Shown here piece after piece: positions 29,327-54,301 of a stretch of 64,000 nt of DNA. The stretch lies in NCBI GenBank assembly GCA_023261845.1, contig JALNJZ010000005.1, forward strand, positions 1-64,000, given 5' to 3'. The notes under the pieces are model-generated. The model was not told the DNA's origin and made no database searches. It worked only from the letters and a program-made list of their open reading frames with translations. The position numbers were made by a program, and so were the translations under genes. Every line of letters begins with the position of its first letter. The first letter of the stretch is position 1. The DNA is from Candidatus Terraquivivens tengchongensis (lineage in GTDB: Archaea > Thermoproteota > Nitrososphaeria_A > Caldarchaeales > Wolframiiraptoraceae).

Positions 29327-29904
29327 AGTGTTCCCTTCACGCTAGTCTGCCTTCTTCTTTCATCGAATGAAGAAGCTTGTTTCAAGGACATAGCCAGCGC
29401 TTTTGTGGCAGCCTCAACTTTGTGGTGATCATTTTCGCCATAAAGTACCAGCACATGCATCGTAGCCTCGAGTGAAAACGCAAGCGACCTAAAAAAGTGG
29501 TATGCATCCTCTTTTCTGATGTCCTCTATTTGCGAGCCCTCTAGCTTGAGCTTCAAGACGGCGTACGGTCTTTTGACTAAGTCAATGCTCACCATCGCTA
29601 GGGCATCATCCATAGGTATGATGGCATAACCGAATCTTTTGATGCCTTCTCTGTTGCCTAATGCTTTTGAGATGGCAGAGCCAAGCGTTATGGCCACATC
29701 TTCGACTGTATGGTGCGTGAGGTCACCTGTCGCCTCCACAACTAAGTTCATCGCGCTATGCATTGCCAAGGTTGCTATCATATGGTCGAGGAATTTTATA
29801 CCGGTCCTGGATTTTGCAGTACCTTGCCCATCCAATAACACGTCTACGAAGATATTTGACTCCAACGTCCTTCTTTCTATCGTTGCCTTTCTTTCCGTAC
29901 TTAT
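29323..29904 (-). CDS. hisB: Imidazoleglycerol-phosphate dehydratase (start extended to ATA 29904)
   Basis: FLDHM, HHTVED, PMDDA, NDHHKVEA; the conserved N-terminal RKATIERRTLE lies upstream of the track's TTG 29865. Confidence 0.93.
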   Translation of the reverse strand: MSTERKATIERRTLESNIFVDVLLDGQGTAKSRTGIKFLDHMIATLAMHSAMNLVVEATGDLTHHTVEDVAITLGSAISKALGNREGIKRFGYAIIPMDDALAMVSIDLVKRPYAVLKLKLEGSQIEDIRKEDAYHFFRSLAFSLEATMHVLVLYGENDHHKVEAATKALAMSLKQASSFDERRRQTSVKGTL

Positions 29905-31079
29905 CCCTCCTTAGCATGCGTGAAGAGATATGGAAGCTCGTTTACAGTAGGCATTATGACGTCTGCGCCTTTTTTCATAAAGTACTCAATCTTTAATTTT
30001 GGTACATTGCTACTCGCATATACACCAGCGAATATGAACACATCCATTGCGTTTTTAGCATTTTTCACCATTAGCAAGTCTTCTGCTGAGTCGCCAACGT
30101 ATAGAACATTTCCCTTCGGCTGCAAGTAGGACACTGCCTTGAATAAAGAATATGGGTCCGGTTTTCCCACCTTATGAGCCTCCGGACCTATAAGCCGGAC
30201 CTCATCGGCCAAGAATACTGCCGCCTTTTGATTGAAGTATTTGAACAGTTTTCCTAAGACCCTATTCGCCGACCATTTATCCCTACCGGAGGCAATCGTT
30301 AAGTTGGAATGGCCGACTATCTTCTGCAGCTTTATCAGAACTTCCTCCTCAATCAATGGCTTCTCATTCTGGAAAAGGCCTGAGCCGTTAAAGAAAGATG
30401 GCTTCGTGTTGTATACTGCTTCTACACCTTCAGCACCGTAGAAAAGTTCATCAAAGACGGTTACCAAGAGACTTTCTCCGAAGTTACCAGGATAGCCTAG
30501 AAACCTCCTAAATTGGCGGAGCTCGTTTACGAGACCTTTTTCGGCCGCGATCATATCCATTATAGTGTCGATGTCGTACCGGTCAAGATAATCTTTAGTC
30601 TTCATAACTTTACCAAGAATTTCCACGAATTCCTCCTGATGTTCTTGAAGCGATACTTTATACCTAGTTCCCTTAAAACTACTTGATAGGATATTTACTG
30701 CATCGGTTAACGACGTACCTGCTTCCAAGTCGCTCATCATATCCAAAAAACGTTTAACACATTCTTTGGGCATATTTAAAAACGTCCACTCACTCAGCAC
30801 ATATGCCGTATCCCAATCGTTATTAAACCCGCCACATATTCTAAGAATCTCAATCTGGGCATCCGTCGTTATCGGCCCAATAATGTCCACGGGCATTATT
30901 GAGAAGATGTACTCCACTGTTTTATGTATGGCCTTGTTGTACGAATTGTTGATGTCTATAAGAACCCCGTCACAATCGAAGATTATTGCATCAACATTTG
31001 CTAAAGATTTTTCAATCCCTTCTTTTATCTTAAGTTGTTGATCGTTGATTTCCAACGTATTATAAACAAATGTGCTCAT
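29901..31079 (-). CDS. HAD-superfamily hydrolase, candidate histidinol-phosphate phosphatase
   Basis: FDCDGVL, GGFNNDWD, KPDP, YVGDSAED; located between hisC and hisB. Confidence 0.8.
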   Translation of the reverse strand: MSTFVYNTLEINDQQLKIKEGIEKSLANVDAIIFDCDGVLIDINNSYNKAIHKTVEYIFSIMPVDIIGPITTDAQIEILRICGGFNNDWDTAYVLSEWTFLNMPKECVKRFLDMMSDLEAGTSLTDAVNILSSSFKGTRYKVSLQEHQEEFVEILGKVMKTKDYLDRYDIDTIMDMIAAEKGLVNELRQFRRFLGYPGNFGESLLVTVFDELFYGAEGVEAVYNTKPSFFNGSGLFQNEKPLIEEEVLIKLQKIVGHSNLTIASGRDKWSANRVLGKLFKYFNQKAAVFLADEVRLIGPEAHKVGKPDPYSLFKAVSYLQPKGNVLYVGDSAEDLLMVKNAKNAMDVFIFAGVYASSNVPKLKIEYFMKKGADVIMPTVNELPYLFTHAKEG

Positions 31080-32182
31080 ATTAAGATCTTCAACTCCTCG
31101 ATTAAGCGATCGTTCATTTCTGGCAATCCTACGGTTATTCTATAAGCGAAGCCTTTGGTAAAAATTTTGCCAACCTTTCGTATGTAGATTCTTCTCGATG
31201 CGAGTTTATCTCCTAATGAGCCGTCATCTTCTGACACGTTGATAAGTATGAAGTTAGCTTTGGAATCAAAAGCCTTAACGCCGTTTAGATTATTCAATTT
31301 TTGTTGAAACCTTCTTCTTTCGTCCTTTAACATTTCAATATAAGGTATGAAAGCATCGTGATTCTCGAGAAGCTTTAGGGCAACCTTGAGCGTGACGCTG
31401 GAAACGCTGTATGGTCGAAGTATCCTACTCTTCAGGAGTTCTGCTAGCTCGGAGTTTGCCACTAAGTAGCCGAGCCTTCCACCCGCAAGACCATAACTCT
31501 TTGAAAAACTTCTAAGAACTACCAAGTTTTGATATTCAACAGCCTTTGTTATAAGCGAAAAGTCCGCAAAGTCTACATAGGCCTCATCAAGAACAACAAG
31601 TCCTGGAAAAGATTCAACTATGCTAAGCACAGATTCTTGTGAGAATTGGTTACCAGTAGGATTATTTGGCGAGCATATGAAGATTACACCTGAATTACCT
31701 GCGGTCTTGAGTACGCTTTTGCTGTCCATCGACAGATCATCGTTTAAAGGTACATCAACAAACTTTACATCATGCACCTTTGACCTCATACGATATAATG
31801 AAAAAGACGGTTTTAGCGAAATTACTTTACCTTTTAGTTTCGCAAAAGAATAAATGATGGTATCAATGAGTTGACTACTACCGTTTCCAAGCACGATACA
31901 CTCAGCAGGTAAATTCAACCTTTCTGCGAGGGACTCAGTAAGTTGCCTGTATTCAACTACTGGATAAAACCTAAGGTCTACTTCAGAGACCACCTCCTGC
32001 AACGCTTTTGAGAGGAATTCCCTTGGTATGAAGTAATTTTCGTTCGCATCAAGTTTTATCAGTGGTTCAGAAAACTCAATCCTACTGTTCCATATCTCGG
32101 GAAATGTGTAGGGCTCGAGTGTACTTAACCTCTTCAGCGCATTCCTTAACCAAGTTCTAGAACTCTTTCCTCTCATGTACAT
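31076..32182 (-). CDS. hisC: Histidinol-phosphate aminotransferase
   Basis: KLDANEN, SPNNPTG, DEAY, RSFSKSYGLAG.RLG. Confidence 0.93.
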   Translation of the reverse strand: MYMRGKSSRTWLRNALKRLSTLEPYTFPEIWNSRIEFSEPLIKLDANENYFIPREFLSKALQEVVSEVDLRFYPVVEYRQLTESLAERLNLPAECIVLGNGSSQLIDTIIYSFAKLKGKVISLKPSFSLYRMRSKVHDVKFVDVPLNDDLSMDSKSVLKTAGNSGVIFICSPNNPTGNQFSQESVLSIVESFPGLVVLDEAYVDFADFSLITKAVEYQNLVVLRSFSKSYGLAGGRLGYLVANSELAELLKSRILRPYSVSSVTLKVALKLLENHDAFIPYIEMLKDERRRFQQKLNNLNGVKAFDSKANFILINVSEDDGSLGDKLASRRIYIRKVGKIFTKGFAYRITVGLPEMNDRLIEELKILI

Positions 32183-32188
32183 ATCACG

Positions 32189-33154
32189 TCAACGAGGGAT
32201 GTCCTCTAGCGGGAGTATCAACTGAGGCTCGTGGACGACCAATCCCTGTGCCAACCTTCTTAAGATTGGTAGCAACTTAAGGAATTCTTGTTTATCAACG
32301 ATTGTATTCACGGAGTACCAACCTTTCGCAGATAGCGGGCTTATTGTGGGTTTCTTCAAAGCAGGAAGGTTGTTAAGAAGTTGCTCTAGGTTCTCCTCTT
32401 TCACGTTAACGAATATATGCAATTTCTTTCCGCCATCGATTACGCCCTTCAGCATCGTCATTACGTCAAGCATCTTCTCGCGTTTATCTGGTGTGTTTAA
32501 AGACTTTTTGTTCGCTATCAAAACTGCCGACGATTCAAGTATGACTTCTACCGGCCTTAGGTTGTTTTGTTCAAGGGTTCTGCCGGTCTCAACTACGTCA
32601 ATTATAGCATCCGCATCCTCGGGCGGCTTCGCCTCTGTAGCACCAAAAGACAAGAAGATGCTAACAAAGCGGTTTGTTCCTCTCTTCCACCAAGGCGTTA
32701 TGACAAGAGGCTCCTCATCCTTAAACCATTTCTTGTATACATCGTAGCTCTTTACGTGTCGCGCCGCTATGTTCAAGTACTCAGTGGATATCCTTACGAT
32801 CTTGCCCTCTTTCCAATAACGTTCAAACAACTCAGGTAATGAATTAAAGCCTATGCTTTCAGGAAGCGCTATGACAAGCTTCACCCTGCCGTACTCTAGA
32901 TCCATCAGCACCTCGACGTCCGCGTCGGTTTCACGTATCCAGTCAATACCAGTTATGCCCAAATCCTGAGAACCTTCAGCGACAAACATCGGAATCTCTT
33001 GGGGTCTCAGTATTTTGAGTTCGATTTCTGGATCATCAACCACAGGTCGGTACGTTCTCTCTTGACCACGTAGCCTATACATGGCTTTTTCTAGCAATTC
33101 GAACGTGTTCTTTTCAAGCGAACCTTTTGGTATAGCAAATTTTATCTTGACCAT
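32189..33154 (-). CDS. hisG: ATP phosphoribosyltransferase, long form
   Basis: AIPKGSL, RPQEIP, DLGITG.D, GATEAK, DVVETGRTL, C-terminal regulatory domain. Confidence 0.96.
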   Translation of the reverse strand: MVKIKFAIPKGSLEKNTFELLEKAMYRLRGQERTYRPVVDDPEIELKILRPQEIPMFVAEGSQDLGITGIDWIRETDADVEVLMDLEYGRVKLVIALPESIGFNSLPELFERYWKEGKIVRISTEYLNIAARHVKSYDVYKKWFKDEEPLVITPWWKRGTNRFVSIFLSFGATEAKPPEDADAIIDVVETGRTLEQNNLRPVEVILESSAVLIANKKSLNTPDKREKMLDVMTMLKGVIDGGKKLHIFVNVKEENLEQLLNNLPALKKPTISPLSAKGWYSVNTIVDKQEFLKLLPILRRLAQGLVVHEPQLILPLEDIPR

Positions 33155-33280
33155 ATGATGTCACCACCAACATTTATGTATCGTAGAGTGGGTCTTAGCC
33201 TAGATATAATGCTAAGGACGAACTCAAACGGCAAGATGAACTTGACCAACCTCTTCGGCCAAGACCCTCCCCACACCTGG
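33155..33280 (-). promoter_or_regulatory. Structured 5' leader of the his operon (candidate cis-regulatory RNA)
   Basis: 18-nt imperfect inverted repeat (33183-33200 / 33257-33274) with three G-U-compatible differences on the minus strand, competing local hairpins, and TATA TTTTATATA at 33312-33304. Confidence 0.6.
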
Positions 33281-33363
33281 ACGTGCAAAATACTAGAATC
33301 TAATATATAAAATTTGCTTGTTACAAATTTTGTCATAGATGTTAGCAACGTTGTAAAGAACGC

Positions 33364-35220
33364 TTATCTAAAGCTCGGCCTCTTGGATAACATCCTCGGC
33401 AGGCTGAGCTTTTTATACGGCCTCCCAACATTCTTTGAGTGTATCTCTTTGATTAATTCTTCAAGCGTCATCTGTTTTATACTACCTGACGCTCTGTCTC
33501 TTACGGAAAAGATGTTGGACTCTTTCTCCCTTTTTCCATAAACTATTATGTAGGGAACCCATTCTGTCTCAGCATCCCGAACTTTCTTGTCAACTGTCTC
33601 CAACCTATCATCCACATCGGCCCTTATTTGTTCACTTTCTAACTTTTCGCTCAGTGATACACAATCTTCTATGAACATGTCGGACACAGGTATTAGTCTA
33701 ACTTGCGTTGGCGATAACCAAACCGGTAACATAGGCTTACTACCTTCCTTGTAAACCTTGTAAGCTTTCTCTAATAGAGCGTAGATAACGCGCTCTATGG
33801 CACCGCTTGGTGAACAGTGTAGAATTATCGGGTGCTTCTTGTTTCCAAATTGATCGACGTAGGTTATGTCATAGCGTTCTGCATTCTCAACGTCTATCTG
33901 ATCCGTGGAAAGGGCCGATGCCTTTCTTAGGGTATCAATAAAGTTGAATTCCCATTTCAGAACGAAGTAGAAGAACCTTTCTTCCCACATTTCTACCAAC
34001 GCTGGCTTTCCGAATCTCCTAACCAATTCGGTCACAAATTCCTTGTTGGATTCGTAAAAATCTCTCGTGAACCTAATTGCCATTTCATAGTCGTCCTTGG
34101 TTAAGCCGATGCCTTCTAGAACGTTTATTGATAATTCAAGTCTGCGTAGCATTTCCTCTTTGGCTTGTTGTATATCAGAGCATAATGCATGGACATCGGG
34201 CATAGTAAACGCTCTCAACCTCTTTAAACCGACCAGCTCACCGCTCTTCTCTCTCCTAAAGCTGTATCTCGTTAACTCATAGAGCCTAACAGGAAGCTGT
34301 TTATAGGATATCTGCATGTCGTGCGCCATAAGGAACTGACCAAAACATGCTGCGAACCTTAGGAAAAACTCCTTCTCGTCGGACTTTACTATATATTGTC
34401 TGGCGGGAAACCTGTTCAGGTAACTCTCTAGGCACGGGTGTTTCAGATCATACATTATGGGCGTCTCGATCTCCATACCGCCATACTCAATGACCTTTTC
34501 AGTTACATATTGCTCGATGAGGGATTTTATCAGCCTCCCTTTTGCTGGCCATCTCATATTGCCAAGGTCACTTCCTGGTTCATAATCTGCAATCTCTAAC
34601 TTCTTCATCAAATCCACATGAGGCGGTGTCTGTGATACTACCCTCGACTTTGCCATTTCATATGTTGCGAGCGCTTTTAGATCTTCGTACCCTGAAAAGT
34701 CGAAGGATTCTACTGGAATCAATTCTCCGTTCGGTGTCAGTATGCACCAATATGACCTTATTCTCTCTTCCATGACTAAGGCTTTTGGAACATAAGTGGT
34801 GCTAGCTGCTTCTGGTGTTATTGACCTGAACTGTTCAGCCAATGGATGGCCCTTAACTGACAGGGAAAGGGCCTTAGTCCAACCGAACGGTGAGCTATAA
34901 ACCTCCATTCCTTCCAATTCGCACTTTTTCCTAAAAATGCGAATGATTTCCAAAGCTTTTTCCTGTGTCGCAAGTTTGTTGCTGAGATGGGCATATGGAT
35001 ATATCAGTATGCGCTTATTACCAACCCTTGACGAATATTCCTTCAGCTCACTCACGGCCCTATCTACCATTGTTTCGTCGTCCCCTTCTTCCACAGTCGT
35101 AAGAACCAAGACTATGTCCTCAAACCTCTTACGACCAATCTCTGTCTCTTCGAATACCCTACCTTCCTTCCCCACCGGCTCGTACTCGACAAAGTCGGTA
35201 TGTAATATTAGCAACCTCAT
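33364..35220 (-). CDS. thrS: Threonine--tRNA ligase (archaeal type with DTD-like editing domain)
   Basis: YPYAHLS, PFGW, GHPLAE, LRFAACFGQF, RAFTMPD.H, HCSPSGAIER. Confidence 0.97.
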   Translation of the reverse strand: MRLLILHTDFVEYEPVGKEGRVFEETEIGRKRFEDIVLVLTTVEEGDDETMVDRAVSELKEYSSRVGNKRILIYPYAHLSNKLATQEKALEIIRIFRKKCELEGMEVYSSPFGWTKALSLSVKGHPLAEQFRSITPEAASTTYVPKALVMEERIRSYWCILTPNGELIPVESFDFSGYEDLKALATYEMAKSRVVSQTPPHVDLMKKLEIADYEPGSDLGNMRWPAKGRLIKSLIEQYVTEKVIEYGGMEIETPIMYDLKHPCLESYLNRFPARQYIVKSDEKEFFLRFAACFGQFLMAHDMQISYKQLPVRLYELTRYSFRREKSGELVGLKRLRAFTMPDVHALCSDIQQAKEEMLRRLELSINVLEGIGLTKDDYEMAIRFTRDFYESNKEFVTELVRRFGKPALVEMWEERFFYFVLKWEFNFIDTLRKASALSTDQIDVENAERYDITYVDQFGNKKHPIILHCSPSGAIERVIYALLEKAYKVYKEGSKPMLPVWLSPTQVRLIPVSDMFIEDCVSLSEKLESEQIRADVDDRLETVDKKVRDAETEWVPYIIVYGKREKESNIFSVRDRASGSIKQMTLEELIKEIHSKNVGRPYKKLSLPRMLSKRPSFR

Positions 35221-35311
35221 GTTTTGTTAAAAATGAAGGATTTCTTGCTGATAATATAGCTTTTGTTTAGCGATTTGTTTAAATAAACCTTTTGTTTGAT
35301 GTAACGAGAGG

Positions 35312-36986
35312 GTGTTAAGCCCTAAAAATTCTGATAACTGCCGCTTTACCGTACTCCTACGCGCCAAGACACTTTGGTCACCTTAGTGGGGCGTATCTTC
35401 CAGCTGACATATTTGCACGATTCATGAGGATGCTTGGGCATGAGGTCCTATTCGTATGTGGGACCGATGAGAACGCATCCAGCATCGTACTTGAAGCTAT
35501 GAAAAAGGGCATGACCCCACAACAGCTATGCGATATGTTTTATCCAATTCAAAGAGATACTTTTGCCAGGCTTGGAATAAGTTTCGACATATTCTCTAGA
35601 ACGTCCAAGAAAATTCACTATGATACGGTGTACGAATTTTATACGAGGTTGTGGGAGAAGGGCTACATATACAAGAAGAGGATAAAGCAATGGTATTGTC
35701 CAAAAGATGAGAAAGTATTGCCTGATAGATTCGTAAAAGGCACATGTCCAGTTTGCGGAGCACCGGACCAGTATGGTGAAGCTTGTGAGGTATGTGCAAG
35801 TTGGTATGAGGCGATTGAACTAATAGACCCTATTTGTACTCTGTGCGGTGGCAAACCAATAGTCATAGAGAAAGATCACTACTTCTTGAGGTTGTCGGCT
35901 TTAACGCAGGAAGTGCTTAATTATGTAAAACCGAAGAAGTTCTGGAGAAAATCGACTTACAATAAGACAATATCTTGGTTAGAAAACGAGGGGCTGAGAG
36001 ACAAAGACATAACAAGAGATTATGATTGGGGACCGCCTGCGCCCTTCCCTGGGGCAGAAGGGCAAGTACTTTACAACTGGGTTGAAAATCTTCTAGGATA
36101 TATATCAGCAACTAAAGATTGGAGCATACAGATTGGTCAACCTGATGCGTGGAAGAAGTTTTGGCTAGACCCAGAGACAAAGCTCTACTGCTTTATAGGG
36201 AAGGACAACCTTTTCTTTCATACAATCCTGTTTCCAGCAATACTTATAGCGCATGGTGACTACATTTTGCCCTATAATGTCGTTGTGAACGAATTCGTAA
36301 ACCTTGAAGGGCAAAAACTCTCAACGAGCAGGGGCTGGGTCATTTGGCTTCATGAAATGCTTGAAAGCTATGACCCAGACCTTATTAGATACTACGCTGC
36401 GATAATAGCTCCTGAGACTAAGGACTCCGACTTTAGGTGGAAAGACTTTCAGACAAAAATAAACAACGAACTCGTAGCAACGCTTGGCAACTTCATTCAT
36501 AGAGTGTTGCTATTCGTCTATACCAAATTTGGAGGCATAGTGCCCGAGCCGGGCGAACTTGAACCGCAAGATAAAGATCTTCTGAAAGATGTAGAGAAGT
36601 TGGCTACCATGTTTAAGAATAGGTTGGAGAGTTGTCGTTTTAAGTCAGGCTTAAAGCTCATCCTAGAGCTGGCTCAGCTAGGGAATAAGTACCTGAACGA
36701 TATGAAGCCATGGGCCGTAACGGAGAGCGCACCTAGGACAATATACACGGCAATGCAAGTAGTTAAAGCACTTTGTGTTCTTATGGTACCCTATTTACCT
36801 TTTTCGGCCCATAAACTCATGAACATGATGAATCTAAACTTAACGCCGGAGACTGTAAGATTTGAAGAGTTTAGAATACCCATTAAACCACAGCATAAAA
36901 TCAACAAACCAGAGCCGTTATTCAGAAAAGTAACCGATGATGAAGTATCAAAGCATATGGCAAAGCTTAGTTTAACACAAAAATAA
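35312..36986 (+). CDS. metG: Methionine--tRNA ligase (start anomalous: GTG 35312 is one base out of frame, and no in-frame canonical start precedes the HIGH motif)
   Basis: KILITAALPYSYAPRHFGH upstream of the track's ATG 35424; CGTDE, zinc knuckles, IGKDN, KLSTS. Confidence 0.92.
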
Positions 36987-36997
36987 ATTAGGGAAGT

Positions 36998-38288: not shown

Positions 38289-38492
38289 CTATTATCCACC
38301 TCCTTTACTTGGAGCAAGCTAAAAGTGAAAGTATCAGAAATCCGTTGTTAATACGGCCGTATATTCAAAAGAGGTACCCGTGAGCGATTTCTGCTAAGTA
38401 AAATTTCATAAACTGATAATCTCCATCGGAAAAATGCGTCGGACTTTTCAAAAAAAAAGATTTTTTAGGATAAGACATTATGGAAGTTTAAG

Positions 38493-40183: not shown

Positions 40184-40201
40184 AGTAGGACACTTCCTAG
40201 C

Positions 40202-41903: not shown

Positions 41904-43908
41904 AATCCTTTTAATGGTATTCTCAATAATGTTTGTACTCACGATTATAAGTTTAGCGAGTGTGCATTCGAAGAACATAATAGCTGTAGAAGCATTCTGG
42001 GGTGATGTAAGCAATAGGATCGAAGTTGATGCGGGCGACAAGAACGTACCGCTGATTTTACAGATGGTTAATGCAAGGAAGGAGCAGATCATAGGCGTAA
42101 GGGGCTATCTCGTTCTTCCTGAAGGGTTTGAAGATTCGTTAACGAAGTCCAGATACACCCGCGAAGCTGCCTATGCCGACCCTGTACCGAGTGGACGGTC
42201 TTTTATGCTCCGCTACCTTCTTGACATTTCTGAAAATTTAAAACCAGGCCTCTACAAAGCATATGCAATCATATACTATAACTATTATGATGAGAGTGAG
42301 AAAGACCTGGTTAGCTCCTCATCGTATGTTTACTTTGACATAAGAGTTACTGGAAAGAGCCTAGCTTTGCTCAAGACAGAACACAGTACCTTAACGCCGG
42401 GCATGCTGAACGAAGCCAAGATCATAATCTCCAACAACGGTACTGCGGATATGTACAACGTAATGATCTCGTTAGGAGACCCTGACATAACTGGTGTGAC
42501 AATAATTAATACAAAGCGCTCTTGGCAATTTAGTAGAATCCCGCCCAATACCGATATTGTGCTACCCATATCTTTACAGGTAGAAAATTATGCTGTAAAC
42601 AAAGCCTTACGCATACCGATAGACATCACATACTTAGATTCTTATGGGCAACAAAAGAGGCTCCAGCAAAATGCCATGTTCCGCATAGGCACACAAATAA
42701 GTGAGAGGATAAGAATCGAGGCGACGCTCGACAACGACCTACTATCACCTACAACAGTAAACCAGTTAAAAATAACACTTCGGAACGAAGGGTTAGAACC
42801 TGCATACTCTGTAGAAGTTGAACTAACACCTCCGCAGAGCGTGCCGGCATTTCTCACATTTGTTGGAAAATCAGGCAGGTGGAGCCTAAATGAGCTGAAG
42901 GCCGGGGAAGAATGTCAGCTAGATTTTGAGCTATTCGCTAGTCAGCTGGCTTCTGGTAAGTCTTTCCTGCTTTCGTTGAAACTATCATACCGCGATATTC
43001 ACAATAATTCATACGAGGTGGTCAGGACAATAGGTGTAAGAGTTGCAGATCAGCCGCTTTCTAAGGCATTCAAGATCACGTCAGGAGCTTACTTGACTTC
43101 TGGTTCCATAAACAACTTAGAAATACTCGTGAAGAACTTGAAACCATACACGCTAAAGGATGTATCAATAACGTTGGAGCCTACAGCCGGTTGGTTAACT
43201 TTGTTGGAAGGTGCTAGAGAATATTTCAAAGAGATACGTCCAGACGAGGAAGTTGTGCTGAACGTCTTAGCCTTTGTTTCAGAACAGACCTTTGAAAAAC
43301 TATCCACTGTCGGATACTCGACATATATAAACGTGAACGTTGAATACATAGATTGGCAAGGCGTAACAAAAACAGAGAATTATAGGCTGGGATACTATGT
43401 TAAGGGCATAATAGACTTAAAACTCCAAGACCTCAACTTTGAGGTCATAAATAAGCAACCATACCTCGTTGGAAGGTTGTTGAATGAAGGGAATGAGCCT
43501 GCATTCTTTACGAGGGTTCTGTTGGTTGATTCTAACGACGTTATACGTCCAGTTAAATCCGTTTATCTCGGAGATGTGAACCCCAACGCTCCGCTGAGGT
43601 TTAATCTTCCGATAGCTGTCGTAGGGAATCTCACACCCGGTGTTATACCAGTAGAGATCTTAGTTGAGTACAAAGATACGCTAAGGAATAACTTCTCAAA
43701 GACGTTTGTGCATGATATAATAATTACAAGCAGCTGGCCTCAGTCCCAAGAAAAAACGAGTACCGGTCTGCCCGATATGATTGCTAGGTATACGGCTGCT
43801 GTATTAGTCGGTGTAGCCGTTGTTGCTTCTGTCGTAGCAGTAATTAGAATAAGGGGGAGAAGGAGACGAGGGCCGTCGATACAGTCTGGTATGCCTTCGG
43901 CGGCTTAA
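41890..43908 (+). CDS. COG1361-like surface/S-layer-domain protein with C-terminal TM anchor
   Basis: Signal peptide, repeated Ig-like N.G...A..V and Y.D motifs, TM plus RRRR tail; lies between ABC ATPase and permease. Confidence 0.8.
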   Translation: MIRHRILLMVFSIMFVLTIISLASVHSKNIIAVEAFWGDVSNRIEVDAGDKNVPLILQMVNARKEQIIGVRGYLVLPEGFEDSLTKSRYTREAAYADPVPSGRSFMLRYLLDISENLKPGLYKAYAIIYYNYYDESEKDLVSSSSYVYFDIRVTGKSLALLKTEHSTLTPGMLNEAKIIISNNGTADMYNVMISLGDPDITGVTIINTKRSWQFSRIPPNTDIVLPISLQVENYAVNKALRIPIDITYLDSYGQQKRLQQNAMFRIGTQISERIRIEATLDNDLLSPTTVNQLKITLRNEGLEPAYSVEVELTPPQSVPAFLTFVGKSGRWSLNELKAGEECQLDFELFASQLASGKSFLLSLKLSYRDIHNNSYEVVRTIGVRVADQPLSKAFKITSGAYLTSGSINNLEILVKNLKPYTLKDVSITLEPTAGWLTLLEGAREYFKEIRPDEEVVLNVLAFVSEQTFEKLSTVGYSTYINVNVEYIDWQGVTKTENYRLGYYVKGIIDLKLQDLNFEVINKQPYLVGRLLNEGNEPAFFTRVLLVDSNDVIRPVKSVYLGDVNPNAPLRFNLPIAVVGNLTPGVIPVEILVEYKDTLRNNFSKTFVHDIIITSSWPQSQEKTSTGLPDMIARYTAAVLVGVAVVASVVAVIRIRGRRRRGPSIQSGMPSAA

Positions 43909-45098
43909 GGACACGTAAAGTAAGGACGGTTCTAACAATCGTGGGCATAATGATAGGGACTGCACTAATAATATCTCTCATATCTAATACTGAAGGCCTA
44001 AACGTCTTGATAGATAACGCCCTCTCGAAGATAGGTGTCAACAACATATTTGTAACACCTTCTGGAACAGTGTCCGCCCGAGCTGGTCCAAGTGAGACCC
44101 TAAAACTGACAGATGCTGACGTCATGCTACTTGCAAACTTGCCAGAGGTAAAGGCCGTCAGTCCATTCTACCTCTCTCGAGGTAAGCTCATAGGTGGTGG
44201 CTTCGAGCAAACTGTTTCCATAATAGGCCTGGACCCGACTTTGACCTATCAAGTGCTACCCGACCTAGAAATTTACCAAGGCGAGGACCTCTCACCGAAC
44301 GACATGGCGATGATAGCCATAGGTTATGACGTTGCGTTCCCGTCTGGAGAGCCTGGAAAGAGTATACCACTCTACAGCTCTGTAACGCTGGAGCTTATGG
44401 TTGATGGGCAACGTGTCACAAGGTCTTACATCGTCGGAGCAATATACAAGAAATTTGGTTCGACACCATACCTTGACGTTGACAAAAGCGTCATGATAAC
44501 AATACCGCAGGCATGCAGCATTTTCAAATCCACGAGTTACCCAAGCACAGTTGTGATTGCTGAATCTACAGATGCCGTTGACTCAATAATTGAGGCTATA
44601 AACAACATATATGGAAAAGATGCAGACATTATTAGCCCTTTGACGATAATAAAGCAGGTTAAGATAATACTCAACAACTTCACGATTTTCCTCTTAGTGG
44701 TGTCCAGCATAGCGTTGGTTGTCGCCGGCGTAGGCATAATGAACACGATGTTCATGACAATCATGGAGAGGACGAGGGAAATAGGTGTCCTCAGGGCCTT
44801 GGGCTTTTCTCAAAGAGATGTTGCAAAGATTTTCTTAACAGAGTCGACATTGATAGGCATCATAGGAGGTCTGCTTGGCATAGTTTTAGGAAGCTTGTTG
44901 GCCATGTCGCTCGGAGGGGTGTTTTCGTCTTTCCTAATTGGAGTAAGTGGCAATCCGGTGATATACCAGCCAAACGTAACACCGACTGTGTTAGTTAATA
45001 GCTTTTTATTCGCCGTCGTCGTTGGTCTCCTTTCCGGCATATATCCGGCTTTAAGAGCCGCAAGGTTAGACCCTGTCCAAGCACTCAGGGCCGAATAG
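43866..45098 (+). CDS. MacB/FtsX-like ABC permease (start extended to ACG 43866)
   Basis: RTRKVRTVLTIVGIMIG lies upstream of the track's start; GIMNTM, ERTREIGVLRALG, YPA.RAARLDP..ALR.E. Confidence 0.9.
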   Translation, partial: TRAVDTVWYAFGGLRTRKVRTVLTIVGIMIGTALIISLISNTEGLNVLIDNALSKIGVNNIFVTPSGTVSARAGPSETLKLTDADVMLLANLPEVKAVSPFYLSRGKLIGGGFEQTVSIIGLDPTLTYQVLPDLEIYQGEDLSPNDMAMIAIGYDVAFPSGEPGKSIPLYSSVTLELMVDGQRVTRSYIVGAIYKKFGSTPYLDVDKSVMITIPQACSIFKSTSYPSTVVIAESTDAVDSIIEAINNIYGKDADIISPLTIIKQVKIILNNFTIFLLVVSSIALVVAGVGIMNTMFMTIMERTREIGVLRALGFSQRDVAKIFLTESTLIGIIGGLLGIVLGSLLAMSLGGVFSSFLIGVSGNPVIYQPNVTPTVLVNSFLFAVVVGLLSGIYPALRAARLDPVQALRAE

Positions 45099-45158: not shown

Positions 45159-45920
45159 ATGTACACGTTGTTCATAACGGGAACGGCAGGGTCGGGTAAA
45201 TCAACATTGACCGGGTCATTTAATGAGTGGCTTCGTGACCAAGAGCAGTCAACCGTAACTGTTAATCTTGATCCTGCAGCGACTATTCTGCCTTATGAGC
45301 CCGACGTAGACGTAAGAGAAATTGTCGATTACGAAAGGATAATGGTAACACGTAGACTTGGACCAAATGCGGCTTTAATAGCATCCGTAAGGGAGGTTGC
45401 TAGACACATAGAGGAACTAAGAGAAGAAGTTAGTTCCTTCAACGTTGACTATGTGCTTGTCGATACGCCAGGCCAGCTTGAACTCTTCGCATTCAGAAAA
45501 GAAGGTAAAATAATCGCCAAAAACCTTACTGACGGCTCTAAGGCGATGCTATTCCTTTTGGACCCAATGTTCTGCGTCAACCCGAAAAACTTTGCCGCAA
45601 GCATATTCCTCTCGGTCTCAATATACCTAAGCTTCGGCATACCCCTCATTATGGCATTATCAAAAATTGACGCGGTACCGAAGAAGTACATAAACAGGAT
45701 ACTCAGATGGGCTGAGTCGGATGAGGCGTTTCTAATAGACCTAGAGAATAGGCTTAAAGGAGCCCAGATGATGCTCGCGAGAGATGTTGCAAGGGCCGTG
45801 TTCGACGTGAGCAGCTTCGTACCCATAATACCTGTATCTGCGCTTAATATGAGTGGTCTCGTCGAGCTTCATGGCGCTCTTACGAGGATATTCAGCGAAG
45901 GCGAGCTGGAGCTTAGGTAG
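45159..45920 (+). CDS. GPN-loop GTPase
   Basis: GTAGSGKST, VNLDP, LGPN, DTPGQLE, SKID. Confidence 0.92.
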   Translation: MYTLFITGTAGSGKSTLTGSFNEWLRDQEQSTVTVNLDPAATILPYEPDVDVREIVDYERIMVTRRLGPNAALIASVREVARHIEELREEVSSFNVDYVLVDTPGQLELFAFRKEGKIIAKNLTDGSKAMLFLLDPMFCVNPKNFAASIFLSVSIYLSFGIPLIMALSKIDAVPKKYINRILRWAESDEAFLIDLENRLKGAQMMLARDVARAVFDVSSFVPIIPVSALNMSGLVELHGALTRIFSEGELELR

Positions 45921-46027
45921 AAGATGTTTTTGTGTCCATCAAGTCGCAACGACCGTTTTAAAACGTTTACATAAACATCAAAACTAGAGGCTTATATAAT
46001 CCTAAAACTTTCAGAGAGGAGAGAACG

Positions 46028-46867
46028 ATGACGTACGAAAACACAGAAGTTGAGCAGCTTAGGGAAAAGCTCAAGGAGTTAAATAGTGTAATAAAGCAAA
46101 TCGAAGTCGAGCTTGACGAAGTATCAAAAGAGTTGGGCTCTATTCGCGAGCAGAAAAAAGAGGCAAGGCAGAAATTTCAAGAAAAGTTAAACGAAAAGAA
46201 GAAGCTTTTAGAAGATTACAAAAAACTGAAGTCAGACTTAAATGCATGCTACGCCTCAAGAAAAGATCTTATTAAACAGCTAAAGATCATCGAAAATGAC
46301 ACGCGATATCCAAAGGGCGATATTAGCATAAATGAAATAAAGGATAGAATCAAGAACATAGAATGGACAATACATACTTCGATACTAAAACCTAGCGAAG
46401 AAAGGAAACTTTTCCTTGAATCCAAAAGGTTAGAGGAGGCCGTGGTACTGATTGAAAAACGGGAAGGCCTTATCGCAAACATCAATGCTCAAAACGATAA
46501 AATTAAGTCGATAAGGGATGAGTTGAATGTAATCAAAAGCATGTTGAAAGACATTAACGAGGGAATTAGTAAAATAAAGGAGGAATACGATAATTTAAAG
46601 AAAAAGTATGAGGAGAGACGCAAAGATTACATGCAAATAAAGGAGAGGCTTAGCAGGGCGGAGGCTGAACGGATATTACTTCAATCTAAATTGACGGTAT
46701 TGATGGAGCAGATCAAGGCGGTTATGGATGACGCGGCAAAACGGAAAGAGGAGGAGTTTAAAAAGCGCGTCATTGCCGAGGCTAAGCAGAAGCTGTTAAG
46801 TGGTAAAAGAGTAACTTTCCAAGAATTAAAACTTCTGCTCGAGAATGATGAGGAGTTTAAACTTTAG
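46028..46867 (+). CDS. Archaeal coiled-coil protein (COG1340-like)
   Basis: Heptad-rich sequence with central IEWTIHTSIL..SEER and C-terminal GKRVTFQEL. Confidence 0.7.
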   Translation: MTYENTEVEQLREKLKELNSVIKQIEVELDEVSKELGSIREQKKEARQKFQEKLNEKKKLLEDYKKLKSDLNACYASRKDLIKQLKIIENDTRYPKGDISINEIKDRIKNIEWTIHTSILKPSEERKLFLESKRLEEAVVLIEKREGLIANINAQNDKIKSIRDELNVIKSMLKDINEGISKIKEEYDNLKKKYEERRKDYMQIKERLSRAEAERILLQSKLTVLMEQIKAVMDDAAKRKEEEFKKRVIAEAKQKLLSGKRVTFQELKLLLENDEEFKL

Positions 46868-46954
46868 AACATGAAGGACGGACATCTTCTGATATTTTTA
46901 GAATGATTAACGTTATATTAGACTAATTAGAGAGATTTGTAACGGAAAAATAGC

Positions 46955-48136
46955 ATGGAAAATTTGGAAAAAAGACAAGAGAAGCTCCTCATCCTAGTGG
47001 TTGATAGAGATAACGATATTGGTAAAAAAACAGGTATAAAAACGCCTATCATAGGAAAAGAGAACAATCTGGAGGCGGCGAAGAGCCTTGCCTTGGCAGA
47101 CCCCGAAGAATCGGATGCAAACGCTATGTTTGGTGCCCTTAAACTATACGAGGAGTTAGTTAGCAAGTATGGAAAAGAGAATGTCGAGGTTGCAACCATA
47201 GCCGGTAGTGAGGAAAGTGGCTACTGGTCTGACGAAAAGATAAGGCGCGAGTTAGATGAGGTTTTAAAAACATTTCCATCATCCGCCTGCATCTTCGTTA
47301 GTGATGGCATCACTGACCAATTCGTATCCCCGATAATTTCATCAAAATTACCCATAGTTTCTGTTAAGAGAGTTGTAGTTAAACAAAGCGAGAGTGTCGA
47401 ACACACGTGGCTCTTACTCGGAAAATATATAAAGATGGCGATATTTGATACCAGATATTCTAAAATTTTTCTTGGAATACCGGGATTGTTGCTAACCTTC
47501 ATAGGTATTCTTTATACTCTTGGTTTGATGAACATACCAATACTTTTGCTGATCATAGGCATAGCATTATTCATCAAAGGTTTTGGAATTGACAACTCAA
47601 TAGCAACGAGATTCAGAATGTTGTCGAAGTTTATATCCTCGCACCCATTGGTACAGCTGAGAACCTTTAGCATAATTTCATCGTTGATTATTCTATTCAT
47701 AGGCATTTATTCGGGTTACATTAGCGCGTCGTCAACACTACCAAAAAATGTACAATTGCCATCAATCTCTGAAGACTTTTATTATTGGTTAGGAATGTTA
47801 CCCATGCTTACGGGTCAGTTCATACTTGGGGGCATAGATCTAATTTTTGTAAGCTTGTTACTCGTGGTGCTTACATACAGCATCTATTACATAATCTTGA
47901 AGAACATTAAATTCTGGAGAACTGTGCAAGCTACCGTTACGTTGATATGGTTATGGGCACTCTTGAAGAGAGTTGGGATGGTGCTTTCGGATACATCTTC
48001 CGCCACAGTGTTTGGTCCTCATGTGGTAATGCTACTCACGATAGGGCTTTTAGGCATACCGGCCCTAACGATAACTTTCATAGTTACAAGATACATGAGA
48101 AAAGCATACGCCTCATACTTTAAGAAAACAAAGTGA
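46955..48136 (+). CDS. DUF373-family membrane protein
   Basis: VDRDNDIG.K, ADPEESDAN, VSDG.TD, VVKQS; C-terminal TM helices. Confidence 0.88.
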   Translation: MENLEKRQEKLLILVVDRDNDIGKKTGIKTPIIGKENNLEAAKSLALADPEESDANAMFGALKLYEELVSKYGKENVEVATIAGSEESGYWSDEKIRRELDEVLKTFPSSACIFVSDGITDQFVSPIISSKLPIVSVKRVVVKQSESVEHTWLLLGKYIKMAIFDTRYSKIFLGIPGLLLTFIGILYTLGLMNIPILLLIIGIALFIKGFGIDNSIATRFRMLSKFISSHPLVQLRTFSIISSLIILFIGIYSGYISASSTLPKNVQLPSISEDFYYWLGMLPMLTGQFILGGIDLIFVSLLLVVLTYSIYYIILKNIKFWRTVQATVTLIWLWALLKRVGMVLSDTSSATVFGPHVVMLLTIGLLGIPALTITFIVTRYMRKAYASYFKKTK

Positions 48137-48142
48137 GAGCAT

Positions 48143-48925
48143 ATGTTTCAGAAATTGCTGAAGCTATTTGGCGCATACCGGTTATATGAAGCTTGGTTGA
48201 TAAATAGTGTTAAAAACGGCCCCATGCCAAAGCACGTAGCGTTAATATTGGACGGAAATAGGCGCTGGGCTAAGAATAAAGGGTTCGACCACACTTTTGG
48301 GCATAAAATTGGAGCAGACGTTGCAGAGAAAGTTCTTGAGTGGTGCATTGAGCTAAAAATTCAGACCGTAACGCTTTACGTTCTTTCTACGGAAAATCTG
48401 AAAAGAGATCAGGAAGAACTGTCAGAAATATTCAGGCTAATAAAGGAACGTGCTGAGAGGTTTGTAAATGACCCGAGGATACATAACAATCGTGTAAAGG
48501 TCACGATAATCGGTAGAAGAGAGCTAATACCCGACGACGTCAGGGGAGCGCTCGAAAAGTTAGAGAGCGTAACTAAAGATTACAACAATTATTTTCTGAA
48601 TATAGCGGTGGCTTATGGTGGAAGGGCAGAAATAGTTGATGCTACAAAGAAGATAGCCATTATGGTAAAGGAAGGAAAGCTTTCTGTTAACGACATAGAT
48701 GAAAAAGTTATCGAGTCAAATTTGTACACGTCCGGCATACCAAACTCTGATCCCGATTTGATAATTAGGACATCTGGTGAGGAGAGGATAAGTAACTTTC
48801 TTTTGTGGCAATCTGCATACAGCGAGCTCGTTTTTTTGGATATATTCTGGCCAGAATTCAGGAAGATAGATTTGTTACGAACGATCAGAACGTATCAGCA
48901 ACGTAATCGTAGATTCGGAGTTTAA
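48143..48925 (+). CDS. uppS: cis-prenyltransferase (polyprenyl diphosphate synthase)
   Basis: HVALILDGNRRWA, STEN, YGGR.EI, IRTSGE.RISNFLLWQ, RRFG. Confidence 0.95.
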   Translation: MFQKLLKLFGAYRLYEAWLINSVKNGPMPKHVALILDGNRRWAKNKGFDHTFGHKIGADVAEKVLEWCIELKIQTVTLYVLSTENLKRDQEELSEIFRLIKERAERFVNDPRIHNNRVKVTIIGRRELIPDDVRGALEKLESVTKDYNNYFLNIAVAYGGRAEIVDATKKIAIMVKEGKLSVNDIDEKVIESNLYTSGIPNSDPDLIIRTSGEERISNFLLWQSAYSELVFLDIFWPEFRKIDLLRTIRTYQQRNRRFGV

Positions 48926-49989
48926 TGTGTATAGGGATGGAACGGTGCTTTAGATAGTCGTACGGCACCATCCTTCTTAATTAGCAAAGTATCTTCGAGC
49001 CTTATGCCATACTGTTTTGGGATGTACACACCAGGCTCACATGTCACAACCATGTTTTCAGCAAACAGATCTTTGCTATTGGGCGATATTTTTGGCGGCT
49101 CATGAACGCTTAACCCTATGCCGTGTCCCAAGCTATGAACGAAGTACTCAATGAGTCCAGCATTTTCTATAAACTGTCTCGCAACCCTATCGACGAAGGA
49201 AGTAGAGACCCATGCCATCATATGTTCCTCGGCTAAATTTTTGGCCTCCTCGACCACTTTGTAAACCTTCTCGATTTTATCCTCCACTTTATCTCCTACA
49301 AAAAATGTTCTTGTTACATCTGCTGAATACTCGTTTACCGATGCACCCAAATCTATTACGACAACGTCACCGGCTTGAAGTTGTCTATTGCCTGGACCAC
49401 CGTGGGGCAAAGATGACTTCGCACCGGATGCCACTATTATATCAAACGCGACCCTATCTGCACCACATCTCAACAACTCTTCGGTTAACTCTGCCTTTAC
49501 ATCTTGCTCAGTAACGCCAGGCGATAGTAGGTCCAGGGCAACCTCCATACCCACATCAGATATTGCCGCTGCTTTCATTATATTCTCCAACTCATTTTCG
49601 TCTTTTATTGACCTCAACTTCCAAACGAGTTCGGACGATGGTATTAAATGTAGAAACCTCAATTTTGATGACATTTTCCAGAAAGATTCAGCATCCATAT
49701 AGTCGAACCCAATATCTCCAACAAGCTTACCCAACTCTTCTGCGAGCTCGTCTTTGAACATATCATGGGTCTTTGTTTTAATTATATCAATACCCTGTAT
49801 AGCCTGCTGAACGGCTGACTCGTAGTAAAGGGGCAATGTATAAAGCTTGACTGTGCCGTCGGACATTATTACAGCCGCGCCCTCACCCTTAAAACCTGTG
49901 AAGTAGTAAAGATTTTCAGGTAACGTCAGCAAATATGCGCTAAAAGCCCTCTCCTCCATTAGTTCTAGGAGGCGTTTTATCCTCTCCAT
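48922..49989 (-). CDS. pepQ: Xaa-Pro aminopeptidase (M24B)
   Basis: PH, DLG, DVTRT, HSLGHGIGL.VHE.P, EPG.Y, GIRLED. Confidence 0.9.
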   Translation of the reverse strand: MERIKRLLELMEERAFSAYLLTLPENLYYFTGFKGEGAAVIMSDGTVKLYTLPLYYESAVQQAIQGIDIIKTKTHDMFKDELAEELGKLVGDIGFDYMDAESFWKMSSKLRFLHLIPSSELVWKLRSIKDENELENIMKAAAISDVGMEVALDLLSPGVTEQDVKAELTEELLRCGADRVAFDIIVASGAKSSLPHGGPGNRQLQAGDVVVIDLGASVNEYSADVTRTFFVGDKVEDKIEKVYKVVEEAKNLAEEHMMAWVSTSFVDRVARQFIENAGLIEYFVHSLGHGIGLSVHEPPKISPNSKDLFAENMVVTCEPGVYIPKQYGIRLEDTLLIKKDGAVRLSKAPFHPYTH

Positions 49990-53100: not shown

Positions 53101-53658
53101 ATCGGAAACTACAAACTCAGGTCCGTCAGAATAAGCGAGTTGGAGTTGGAAAGGCAAGAGATAATCAACTTCATAAAGATGGTTGAAGGTGAGAAATTAA
53201 GAGCGTTCTTCACAACTATGGAAAAAGTTTCCGAAAAGTTTGCGACGTATTTTAACAGGCTTACTAAGGGTGTGGCCTGGCTTAGGCTTGTTGACGAGAC
53301 AAAACCGGGCGAGTCGGGTGTTGAAGTTGTAGTACAGTTTCCTGGAAAACCCCAGCGCTCTTTGAGAAGCGTTAGCGGAGGCGAAAGGTCCGTTGCGGCT
53401 GTCTCGCTCCTGATGGCGCTACAAGGCCTCACACCTGCCGACTTTTACATCTTTGATGAGATAGACGCACATATGGACGTAGCCTACACGGTTGCGTTGG
53501 CTGAGTTGCTGAAAGAAATGTCGAAGAAGACGCAGATAATAATCGTAAGCCTTAAAGACGTGTTGGCCGAAAAGGCCGATCAGCTCATCGGCGTTTATAT
53601 GGACAAAGGCGAATCCAGAATAATTAAGACAAAGCTGGAGGGAGTCGAGGCTGGCTGA
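50197..53658 (+). CDS. smc: Chromosome segregation protein SMC
   Basis: FKSF, GPNGGGKSN, Q-loop PQG, long coiled coils, SGGERS, FDEIDAH.D. Confidence 0.95.
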   Translation: MVYIKKLSLHAFKSFGQKKATVELLKGLVVITGPNGGGKSNLLDAIRFVTGELSPHALRVGRLSELVHEGGKGKAAYARVSITLDNSEKALPIETDEVTITRKIYQNGESEYYINGRSASRGELLTLLSAANIRPSGFNILPQGAILSLAEMNPDDMRKLIEEVAGIAEYNRKKAEAEEQLAQADKNLEVAKASTAEVRTRVKQLEKERNQYLRKKAVEAEIAKLKTLQYKLEMEKISESLKVLQSKIVNITEQVHALEVEKQEVSAKLAELKSNLQTTESEISEIERRLAEFTKARQETFEKIVKLRLDIRDSENRIGILEKESAHLQQKIAELESAISLSEQELNDLELKIAECSKDKKQLEEEAAKMSEEVDRLRSAVKELEKKLEEVKFSKIKEERTRSEAYLRLENIKNSKEQLMREKEDIHREVLAIKNKIADIDEKLEKLFSEVRITEDEILKLNQELSECASLVGRYSEILARADDVINKTEALIAELKIRLAAQPEDEELKKFEDFARLLAERFVDGVVGTLDSFIKSLPDSEKLDVVLNEWASAIVTDNYAVTRSLSETFASLDFKCKLLTLNDNPSETNRDNLEKFQAWVRNHVEFVNDFEEAYKKTVNGKLVILDKGIVCYPGGFVKIVGNEKSKINALRVELEDLESHLGAVKLKLKEIKLRRDELAKKAESIKSEIQGQQTKLSSLNADIKSLNAERKLLEESHSQLMVREKKIDERIDILTKEEENVKKRLSEIVSTEPAGDELRPNIEKDLELTSSKLKFLESKYTELKVQLAEKSTTLKSLEESKRRILNLVARYRSEVESLKRSLEASKLRAEEEKKLRAEFESKLTLSETELSKLDYEIANLSARHKELINIRDEIRQTISAQSEEESKISERLRTLWSEQQEAKLESVKIESQLQMIMEKLSELGDVDASELSTFEPTLREQILTILEAERDELSFVNQLAPEQYEALIGNYKLRSVRISELELERQEIINFIKMVEGEKLRAFFTTMEKVSEKFATYFNRLTKGVAWLRLVDETKPGESGVEVVVQFPGKPQRSLRSVSGGERSVAAVSLLMALQGLTPADFYIFDEIDAHMDVAYTVALAELLKEMSKKTQIIIVSLKDVLAEKADQLIGVYMDKGESRIIKTKLEGVEAG

Positions 53659-54301
53659 CGTAGAAGGTGAAAAGATTCAATGGATCAAGTCTCCATGGCG
53701 CGTATTATTTGACGTTACAAACTGGGATAAGTTAAGGGTTTGGGAGATTAATTTAAGAGAGTTGCTGAGCTCTTTAGCCAACGTACTAAAAGGAAAAGAA
53801 TTATTTGATTTCGTTTCGTCGGGAATCGCCGTATACTCCGCGGCAACATTGCATAGGATGAAGACGGAAAGGTTACTCGCCGCTGACGAAGTACCCGTCA
53901 TAAAACAAAAGCAAGAATACTTCATACCGCCTCCTATATTTCCACCGTTGAGAGGCGAGTTCGTGACGACCACCATACTCGAGTTAATTGATGCTCTAAA
54001 GCGCGTCCTGTCTGAGCCACCACCACAACGGAAGCAAGAAATCATTGAACCGCAGCAGTTGAACATTGAAGATTTCATAATAAAAATCGAGGAGAAGGTG
54101 GAGGAGTTCTACAATTTTATAAAAGAAGTGTTAGAGGTCAAGGGAACTATAACGCTAGACGAGATCATGAGCGGTGTTGATAGGTTAGAGGCAGTAAGAC
54201 GTTTTATACTACTCCTGTTTATTGCGTCGAAGGGCATGATCATGATAACCGAAAATGAGGATGGAAAAGTCTTGATATCTTTGGGTGAGGTACATGGATG
54301 A
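53651..54301 (+). CDS. scpA: Segregation/condensation protein A (kleisin; start extended to CTG 53651)
   Basis: PWRVLFD...VWEINL N-terminus upstream of the track's TTG; AATLHRMKTE; FILLLF C-terminal wHTH; lies between smc and scpB. Confidence 0.85.
   Translation: MADVEGEKIQWIKSPWRVLFDVTNWDKLRVWEINLRELLSSLANVLKGKELFDFVSSGIAVYSAATLHRMKTERLLAADEVPVIKQKQEYFIPPPIFPPLRGEFVTTTILELIDALKRVLSEPPPQRKQEIIEPQQLNIEDFIIKIEEKVEEFYNFIKEVLEVKGTITLDEIMSGVDRLEAVRRFILLLFIASKGMIMITENEDGKVLISLGEVHG

Follow-up and report, generated by a model that had tools for sequence, protein, structure and literature searches.

The first 64,000 nucleotides of contig JALNJZ010000005.1 of Candidatus Terraquivivens tengchongensis, referred to here as the window (contig C8:1-64000 of genome G000, an assembly of 1.22 Mb in 14 contigs that is 99.4% complete), carry four conserved genes, hisB, metG, scpA and a gene for a MacB/FtsX-type permease, that appear to begin at codons other than ATG, GTG or TTG. 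These three codons are abbreviated below as NTG, the genus of this organism as g1 (seven species sampled) and the families compared as f1-f4. In order to locate the starts, the four genes were read codon by codon and as stop-to-stop open reading frames (ORFs), and metG, scpA and the permease gene were compared with 30 related loci each. An original prediction made from the letters of the window had stated that no NTG lies between the in-frame stop and the conserved N-terminus of these genes, and this was found to be true for all four.

The permease gene (43866..45098, +), with matches to PF12704 (MacB_PCD) and PF02687 (FtsX), lies in a frame that opens at 43848 and offers its earliest NTG, a GTG, only at 43941 (codon 32), whereas position 1 of the MacB_PCD profile already falls on residue 27. 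The predicted ACG start (43866..43868, +) was borne out by its presence in 7/7 g1 species. It is found 6 nt behind a Shine-Dalgarno (SD)-like GGGGGAG (43853..43859, +), and the gene overlaps the upstream ORF, which ends at 43908, by 43 nt. The aligned codon was GTG or TTG in all eleven displayed orthologues of other genera (L060-L068, L070, L071); 19 of the 30 permease loci were displayed, the other 11 being matches at ≤36% identity.

The scpA gene (53651..54301, +) gave no Pfam match at 1e-5 and was named as coding for the kleisin partner of SMC because of its position between smc and scpB (PF04079). Its frame opens at 53624 and its earliest NTG is a TTG at 53762 (codon 47). The proposed CTG start (53651..53653, +) is located 9 nt behind a GGAGG (53637..53641, +), which places it in the same register as GGTG-N7, and overlaps the smc stop codon (53656-53658) by 8 nt. 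The prediction of a CTG start is supported by its presence in six of the seven g1 species, with TTG in the remaining one (L087); in L089 an in-frame TAA is present two codons upstream of the CTG. Among other genera, the codon is CTG in 3/3 g4 genomes and TTG, GTG or ATG in g2, g3 and g5. The N-terminus upstream of TTG 53762 is conserved in 30/30 relatives, and that TTG is itself absent in L084 and L086.

The start of hisB had been misplaced by the original prediction, which set it at an ATA. The gene codes for imidazoleglycerol-phosphate dehydratase (29323..29898, -; PF00475 IGPD, E = 4e-53) and its frame opens at 29910, where the codons read TAA GGA GGG ATA AGT ACG. Alignment with six congeners (L032-L037) showed that all of them carry ATG two codons past the ATA, at the position of the ACG (29896..29898, -), 11 codons upstream of the earliest NTG (TTG 29865, codon 16). 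This ACG follows GGAGG at a distance of 7 nt (SD-like GGAGGG at 29905..29910, -) and is, judging from the alignment, a recent ATG>ACG change. It starts 2 nt past the stop of the upstream gene. With the starts so corrected, two genes overlap their upstream neighbours, the permease gene and scpA, instead of the three stated originally. Pfam is uninformative on the hisB start, since the IGPD profile begins only at residue 36, past the TTG.

The non-canonical start of metG, which had been left undecided as to its codon, was resolved to the CTA at 35322..35324 (+), aligned with the outgroup ATG and in SD register. The gene (35322..36986, +; PF09334, E = 7e-141) codes for methionyl-tRNA synthetase (MetRS) and occupies a frame that opens at 35319, immediately 3' of a TAA, and reaches its earliest NTG, an ATG, at 35424 (codon 36). 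Positions 1-391 of the tRNA-synt_1g profile align to MetRS residues 4-397, and the 'HIGH' region (RHFGH) precedes the first NTG. The N-terminus reads L-A-R-Y-I-I-T-A-A-L-P-Y, with CTA in place of the Met of outgroup records such as L185 (M-A-K-R-V-L-V-T-A-A-L-P-Y) and L232 (M-V-R-Y-M-V-T); the archaeal outgroup comprised three loci among the matches listed, which were mostly bacterial. Among the matches listed was also a metagenome-assembled genome record of Candidatus Wolframiiraptor allenii, to which the MetRS N-terminus is 75% identical. The gene is present in a single copy, the only other match in the genome having E = 8e-6 in a 782-aa frame. A GGGTG (35310..35314, +) places GGTG 7 nt before the CTA, and a TATA-box-like element, TTTAAATA (35278..35285, +), lies further upstream, as it does in the upstream sequence of congeners; from its position the leader is inferred to be only about 15 nt long.

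This arrangement of metG was found to be conserved well beyond the genus. In 26/26 loci of families f1, f2 and f4 the start position is occupied by CTA (17) or CTC (9), located 7 nt behind GGTG in 22 loci and 6 nt behind it in four, and 18 of the 26 are devoid of any in-frame NTG ahead of the A-A-L-P-Y motif. In the fourth family, f3 (four loci), ACG is found 7-8 nt behind GGTG in three, and an NTG takes that place in L027.

To judge these positions against the ordinary practice of the genome, the 16S rRNA was located by Rfam search and its 3' end read as ...GGATCACCTCCT. Upstream of 455 confident ATG starts, the last GGTG ends 7 nt before the ATG in 25/77 cases, forming a sharp peak, and the GGAGG-to-ATG spacings include 7 nt in 6/34. 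All four window starts are found at spacings that the genome uses, namely GGGTG-N7-CTA (metG), GGAGG-N9-CTG (scpA), GGAGG-N7-ACG (hisB) and GGGGGAG-N6-ACG (permease), and the SD-like sequences originally noted in front of three of them were thereby upheld.

We then re-checked starts across the whole genome, for which 1,275 heuristic ORF models were built. Taking the first NTG of each as its start, TTG or GTG accounted for 20 of the 61 window ORFs and 603 of the 1,275 models, in agreement with the frequent TTG/GTG starts noted previously, and ATG for only 53% genome-wide. Pfam profiles, whose boundaries are fuzzy by a few residues, were searched against the stop-to-stop N-termini of the 61 window ORFs and of 518 ORFs elsewhere whose first NTG lies at codon ≥8; 307 of these 518 gave matches and 211 gave none. 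A domain beginning upstream of the first NTG was strictly flagged in metG, in the permease gene and in 13 more ORFs, which resolved into five clean new starts, three that were marginal by 1-2 residues and five interrupted genes.

The five clean cases are a MoaA-like radical-SAM gene (C1:38120-38122, -; GGTG-N7-ACG), whose Cys motif precedes the first ATG, an FBP aldolase/phosphatase (FBPase) gene (C2:18365-18367; GGTG-N7-CTG), a DUF655 gene (C5:97037-97039; GGGGG-N9-CTG), a DHQS-II gene (C5:112869-112871, -; GGAGGTG-N7-ACG) with its first NTG at codon 81, and tatC (C12:13196-13198; GGAGGTG-N7-ACG) with its first NTG at codon 58. Within g1, ACG is present in 7/7 species for the MoaA-like gene, where a TGA stands two codons upstream, and likewise in 7/7 for DHQS-II, behind the same GGAGGTG-N7; CTG is present in 7/7 for both FBPase and DUF655; and tatC has ACG in 5/7 and ATG at the same codon in 2/7. 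In other genera ATG, GTG or TTG occupies the corresponding position of all five of these genes, as it does for the permease gene and, outside g4, for scpA; for metG the outgroup records have ATG there. In-frame stops 1-2 codons upstream of the start were observed for metG, FBPase, the MoaA-like gene and the scpA of L089. Upstream of the FBPase CTG, at C2:18355-18364, we also observed a minimal out-of-frame ATG-TAA right after GGTG, and the same arrangement occurs ahead of another gene at C5 ~13419-13428.

A scan of the SD register added three CTG candidates, one in a RAMP gene, where AAGGAGGTGA precedes the codon, and two in genes for proteins of 153 aa and 414 aa, the latter encoded just outside the window. 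The RAMP gene had been one of the three marginal Pfam flags and was retained on its SD evidence, and the other two, anthranilate synthase and NAD kinase, were dropped. The eight additional cases bring the total to about 12 of 1,275 ORF models, with ACG in five (hisB, permease, MoaA-like, DHQS-II and TatC), CTG in six and CTA in one, so that 11 of the 12 differ from AUG by a single position and metG is the exception. The true number is at least this high, as the approach is blind to short extensions and to the 211 of the 518 ORFs that lack a Pfam match. Gene callers limited to ATG, GTG and TTG would miss such starts, as had been anticipated.

The five interrupted genes were set aside as not being start problems. 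In EF-2 (C2, minus strand, ~83949-83979) a 31-nt insert with an 8-bp hairpin lies within the P-loop codons (..GIIAH / VDHGKTT..) and shifts the frame; this insert may be a bulge-helix-bulge intron, here within a gene that codes for a protein. In cbf5 (C8 ~80108-81180, +, 16 kb past the window) a DKCLD ORF and a TruB_N/PUA ORF are separated by a break right after ..AGHGGTL, a split resembling the cbf5 pre-mRNA intron of other archaea. The cytochrome bd subunit I gene (C6:66421-67680), the CitMHS transporter gene (C13:52369-52872 plus an ORF upstream) and an SBP_bac_5 fragment (C12:83701-84150) match Pfam only from far inside the profile and are, by this pattern, broken or further interrupted genes.

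The SD register was also examined without reference to protein domains. In 5' open stretches, ACG and CTG together made up 6/30 of the codons in exact register, against a background of 195/7,867 (2.5%; binomial p = 8e-5), and register-shifted controls returned no ACG or CTG at -2, -1, +1, +2 and +3 nt and three at -3 nt. The other codons encountered in register (GAT, AGC, AAA, AAT, ACT, GTC, CAT, CAG, CTT and CCT) were each read and set aside: one site belongs to 23S rRNA, two are promoters made of a TATA box plus GGTGA, and the rest have a plausible NTG nearby or no evidence in their favour. Initiation at any codon whatsoever is therefore unsupported beyond metG. The promoter type in question, ATTTATAGGTGA, in which GGTGA follows the TATA box directly, precedes two genes (C1 ~29740 and C2 ~25695), where it has the look of an SD spaced correctly for codons that are not starts.

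Taken together, these data argue, with a probability of about 0.78, that the four window genes and at least eight more really do start at the non-canonical codons ACG, CTG and CTA, most likely as SD-anchored near-cognate starts. The full-length starts are argued for by the lack of any NTG ahead of the conserved N-termini and by the alignment of the proposed codons with the ATG, GTG or TTG of orthologues. Each codon also follows an SD able to pair with the 3' end of the 16S rRNA, and most of them are fixed in all or nearly all of the seven g1 species sampled. According to the mechanism that we propose, the SD would position the small subunit with the ACG or CTG in its P site. An initiator tRNA of the ordinary kind (anticodon CAU), brought in by aIF2, would then be accepted despite one mismatch, and the full-length protein would be made, probably at a reduced rate. 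The alternative offered originally, that initiation is driven by SD sequences or by translational coupling, holds as regards the SD register; coupling is not required, since a TATA-like promoter and a short leader immediately precede both metG and FBPase. The metG gene is a separate, order-wide case, which suggests gene-specific regulation.

Several observations weigh against this interpretation. For hisB, the TTG 11 codons downstream could serve as the start, and ACG is found in only 1/7 species. For DUF655, congeners have TTG (4/7) or ATG (1/7) two codons upstream of the CTG, where this genome has TTA. The evidence for the three added CTG candidates (C5:10304, C8:69895 and C9:3116) consists of SD register and sequence reading. 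In 8/26 metG loci an in-frame NTG does occur between the upstream stop and A-A-L-P-Y: an ATG precedes the SD in L007, a TTG falls within the first strand in L009, and in genera g2 and g4 a GTG that overlaps or adjoins the SD stands 1-3 codons before the start position, so that these genomes could use a canonical start. A near-cognate mechanism is moreover strained for metG, because CTA and CTC pair with the CAU anticodon by the middle base alone. Lastly, the differences listed for DNA contigs of other studies were 40 of 104 and ended short of the permease start, so that these contigs bear out the start codons only in part.

The metG exception could be accounted for if this gene alone were initiated without the initiator Met-tRNAi, by an elongator Leu-tRNA on a CUA or CUC that the SD sets in the P site; MetRS could then be synthesised without recourse to its own product. 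The start codon in the 26 loci is never CTG, TTG, TTA or CTT, the four codons that make up 69% of the Leu codons of the genome (CTA and CTC make up 31%), and both CTA and CTC are two mismatches away from AUG. Elongator-tRNA initiation has precedent, passages of PMC7949028 describing its occurrence in Escherichia coli depleted of initiator tRNA and citing mammalian initiation with Leu-tRNA at CUG. We nevertheless regard this explanation as improbable: f3 uses ACG and L027 an NTG, so that a Leu codon is not required, two Leu tRNAs would be needed (anticodons UAG and GAG), and aIF2 is specific for Met-tRNAi according to a passage in PMC5666671 that concerns eIF2.

A second possibility is that the downstream canonical codons are the true starts, the proteins being N-terminally shortened and the conserved upstream stretches mere relics. 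In its favour, the TTG of hisB still precedes the IGPD domain, and a permease begun at codon 32 (GTG) would retain about 15 hydrophobic residues from its first helix. Elsewhere essential parts would be lost: the shortened MetRS would lack its HIGH region, the shortened MoaA-like protein its CNFRCIFC cluster motif, DHQS-II 55 residues of its domain and TatC 23 residues. The upstream stretches are furthermore kept as protein across families, whereas the downstream NTGs of hisB and scpA are not conserved (the hisB TTG is replaced by CTG, TTA or TCA in 4/6 congeners), and N-terminal shortening thus seems very unlikely.

We attach as little weight to C-to-U editing of the mRNA, which would turn ACG into AUG and CUG into UUG and so render initiation canonical. 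Both recurrent codons are indeed one C-to-U change from a canonical start, and no start at ATT, ATA or ATC was verified. The CTA and CTC of metG, however, would be converted to UUA and UUC, which are not starts, and the only RNA-library contig over an ACG, that of hisB, reads ACG, a weak argument as such a contig drops minority variants and may be DNA-derived. Our literature searches found no such editing in archaeal mRNAs, and a passage of PMC5666671 describes the preference for CUG and ACG as the hierarchy of eukaryote-type initiation, where it arises without editing.

Recoding from upstream is less probable still. Either the out-of-frame GTG contained in the SD (GGTG) would initiate translation that then shifts frame by +1, or removal of a small mRNA intron would join an ATG exon to the ORF. 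Nearly all genomes do have a GTG 7 nt ahead of the metG CTN, in frame in g4 (spacing 6), and the genome seems to carry introns in protein genes (EF-2 and cbf5). Against this, the 7 nt between GTG and CTN vary freely and share neither a slippery sequence nor a stop motif, the GGTG itself represents the core of a normally spaced SD, the region upstream of metG is promoter, and the other genes with non-canonical starts show no such GTG pattern. Nor did the metG leader reveal any conserved RNA structure in 16 sequences (consensus fold of -0.36 kcal/mol with five pairs), or one resembling a thrS-type operator.

The prospect that base-call or assembly errors hide true ATG, GTG or TTG codons, named originally as what would undo the finding, is negligible even though the hisB ACG occurs in this genome alone (ATG in 6/6 congeners) and the assembly is in 14 contigs: the same codons recur in up to 7/7 separately assembled species while adjacent codons vary, which excludes base-call error for the permease, scpA and metG; contigs of three other studies span 29500-49499 at ~99.6% identity (66-80 differences) with no difference at the hisB or metG start among those listed (40 of 104); an RNA-library contig (record 9) covers 29692-30336, including the hisB ACG, with 0 differences, the RNA-library contigs among the pieces listed covering the start of hisB and not those of metG or the permease; and the long ORFs of the window, read stop to stop, are free of frameshifts.

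Three further features of the window were recorded. At 38450, in the spacer between the ORFs at 38149 and 38465, the contigs of the three other studies are 2 letters shorter. The tRNA at 7383-7471 was called as Val(CAC) without an intron search and as His(ATG) with an 8-nt intron in an intron-aware run, and its call is thus unstable. Two tungsten-type AOR genes are also present.

We next considered whether near-cognate initiation is a trait of this lineage. In the same SD-register scan, a genome of the sister family yielded ACG or CTG in 0/28 cases (Fisher's exact p = 0.015 against this genome), a comparison with one genome, over the first 800 kb of its 1.68 Mb (48%), in which SD spacing is broader. 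Within g1 the same codon toggles between ATG and ACG (TatC, hisB) and between TTG and CTG (scpA), which suggests that the fitness differences involved are small. The initiation machinery itself appears ordinary. In the initiator tRNA the anticodon is CAU, its stem contains three G:C pairs and A1:U72 is paired, and aIF1 is present and intact, its five genus-specific substitutions all falling in columns that are variable in other genera too; no evident lineage change was thus found in the initiator tRNA anticodon or, by comparison across genera, in aIF1. According to passages of PMC6237735 and PMC8211752, aIF1 discriminates against or counteracts non-canonical starts in Sulfolobus. The relaxed start-codon selection proposed originally is accordingly supported indirectly, by the toggling and by the enrichment over the sister family, and not by the initiator tRNA or aIF1, which show no evident change, nor by metG, whose codon is not near-cognate. 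Literature searches found no description of archaeal ACG or CTG starts or of a non-AUG metG, and the terms 'start codon' and 'methionyl' are absent from the main text of the Wolframiiraptor paper.

MetRS is the enzyme that charges the initiator tRNA. Its CTA or CTC start differs from AUG at two positions, keeping only the middle base pair, and never turned into CTG or TTG, although one synonymous change would give a better start. The conservation of this codon across an order indicates that it is probably selected, and its persistence in three families, despite not being near-cognate, argues for gene-specific selection and not for laxity. It looks like a selected start that is either very weak or differently decoded, and its most plausible role would be to make the production of MetRS responsive to how the initiation machinery is faring. 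A bolder version, which we consider unlikely, is that throughout the order metG is started on a CUA or CUC that the SD brings into the P site, independently of codon pairing with Met-tRNAi and perhaps with the elongator Leu-tRNA for which precedent was given above, so that MetRS synthesis would no longer follow the supply of charged initiator tRNA, or would even vary inversely with it. If true, the SD-placed Leu-codon start of metG would constitute a previously undescribed type of homeostatic circuit. The idea of metG regulation is testable because, as stated in PMC9246946, a member of the family has been grown in laboratory culture.

In practical terms, NTG-only gene callers would shorten or overlook about 1% of genes in these genomes, including the essential metG, tatC and scpA and the pathway genes hisB, aroB', fbp and moaA-like, and the missed starts would distort both the metabolism reconstructed for uncultured archaea and the completeness estimated for their genomes. 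As archaea employ eukaryote-like initiation factors on SD-led mRNAs, housekeeping genes that start solely at CUG or ACG would offer a natural system for studying the stringency of aIF1, aIF1A and aIF2. For metG, order-wide retention of a non-cognate start would connect the choice of start codon with the enzyme responsible for charging the initiator tRNA.

These starts can be set beside three known systems. Plant organelles also have genomic ACG codons where Met is expected, which are edited C-to-U to AUG; in contrast, the RNA-library contig of hisB reads ACG, and CTA or CTC in metG could not be mended by such a change. Eukaryotic near-cognate initiation, in which Met-tRNAi decodes CUG, GUG, ACG and AUU, shares with the present case its preferred codons, CUG and ACG, as well as homologous factors (aIF1/eIF1, aIF1A, aIF2/eIF2), and a passage of PMC5666671 describes isoforms of two yeast tRNA synthetases that start at non-AUG codons, GRS1 at UUG and ALA1 at ACG. 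Unlike in eukaryotes, the codon here would be the sole start of the sole protein form, positioned by an SD and not by scanning and a Kozak context, and the housekeeping genes concerned keep it from species to species. Among bacteria, the rare non-NTG starts in NCBI translation table 11 are CTG, ATT, ATC and ATA, and they are not known to approach the ~1% of ORF models found here; to our knowledge, ACG, CTA and CTC are not among the start codons of that table. A bacterial parallel to metG is the autoregulated AUU start of infC, likewise a conserved, weak and SD-led start in a translation gene that could give feedback, and metG resembles it in keeping an unusual start over a wide phylogenetic span (26/26 loci in three families).

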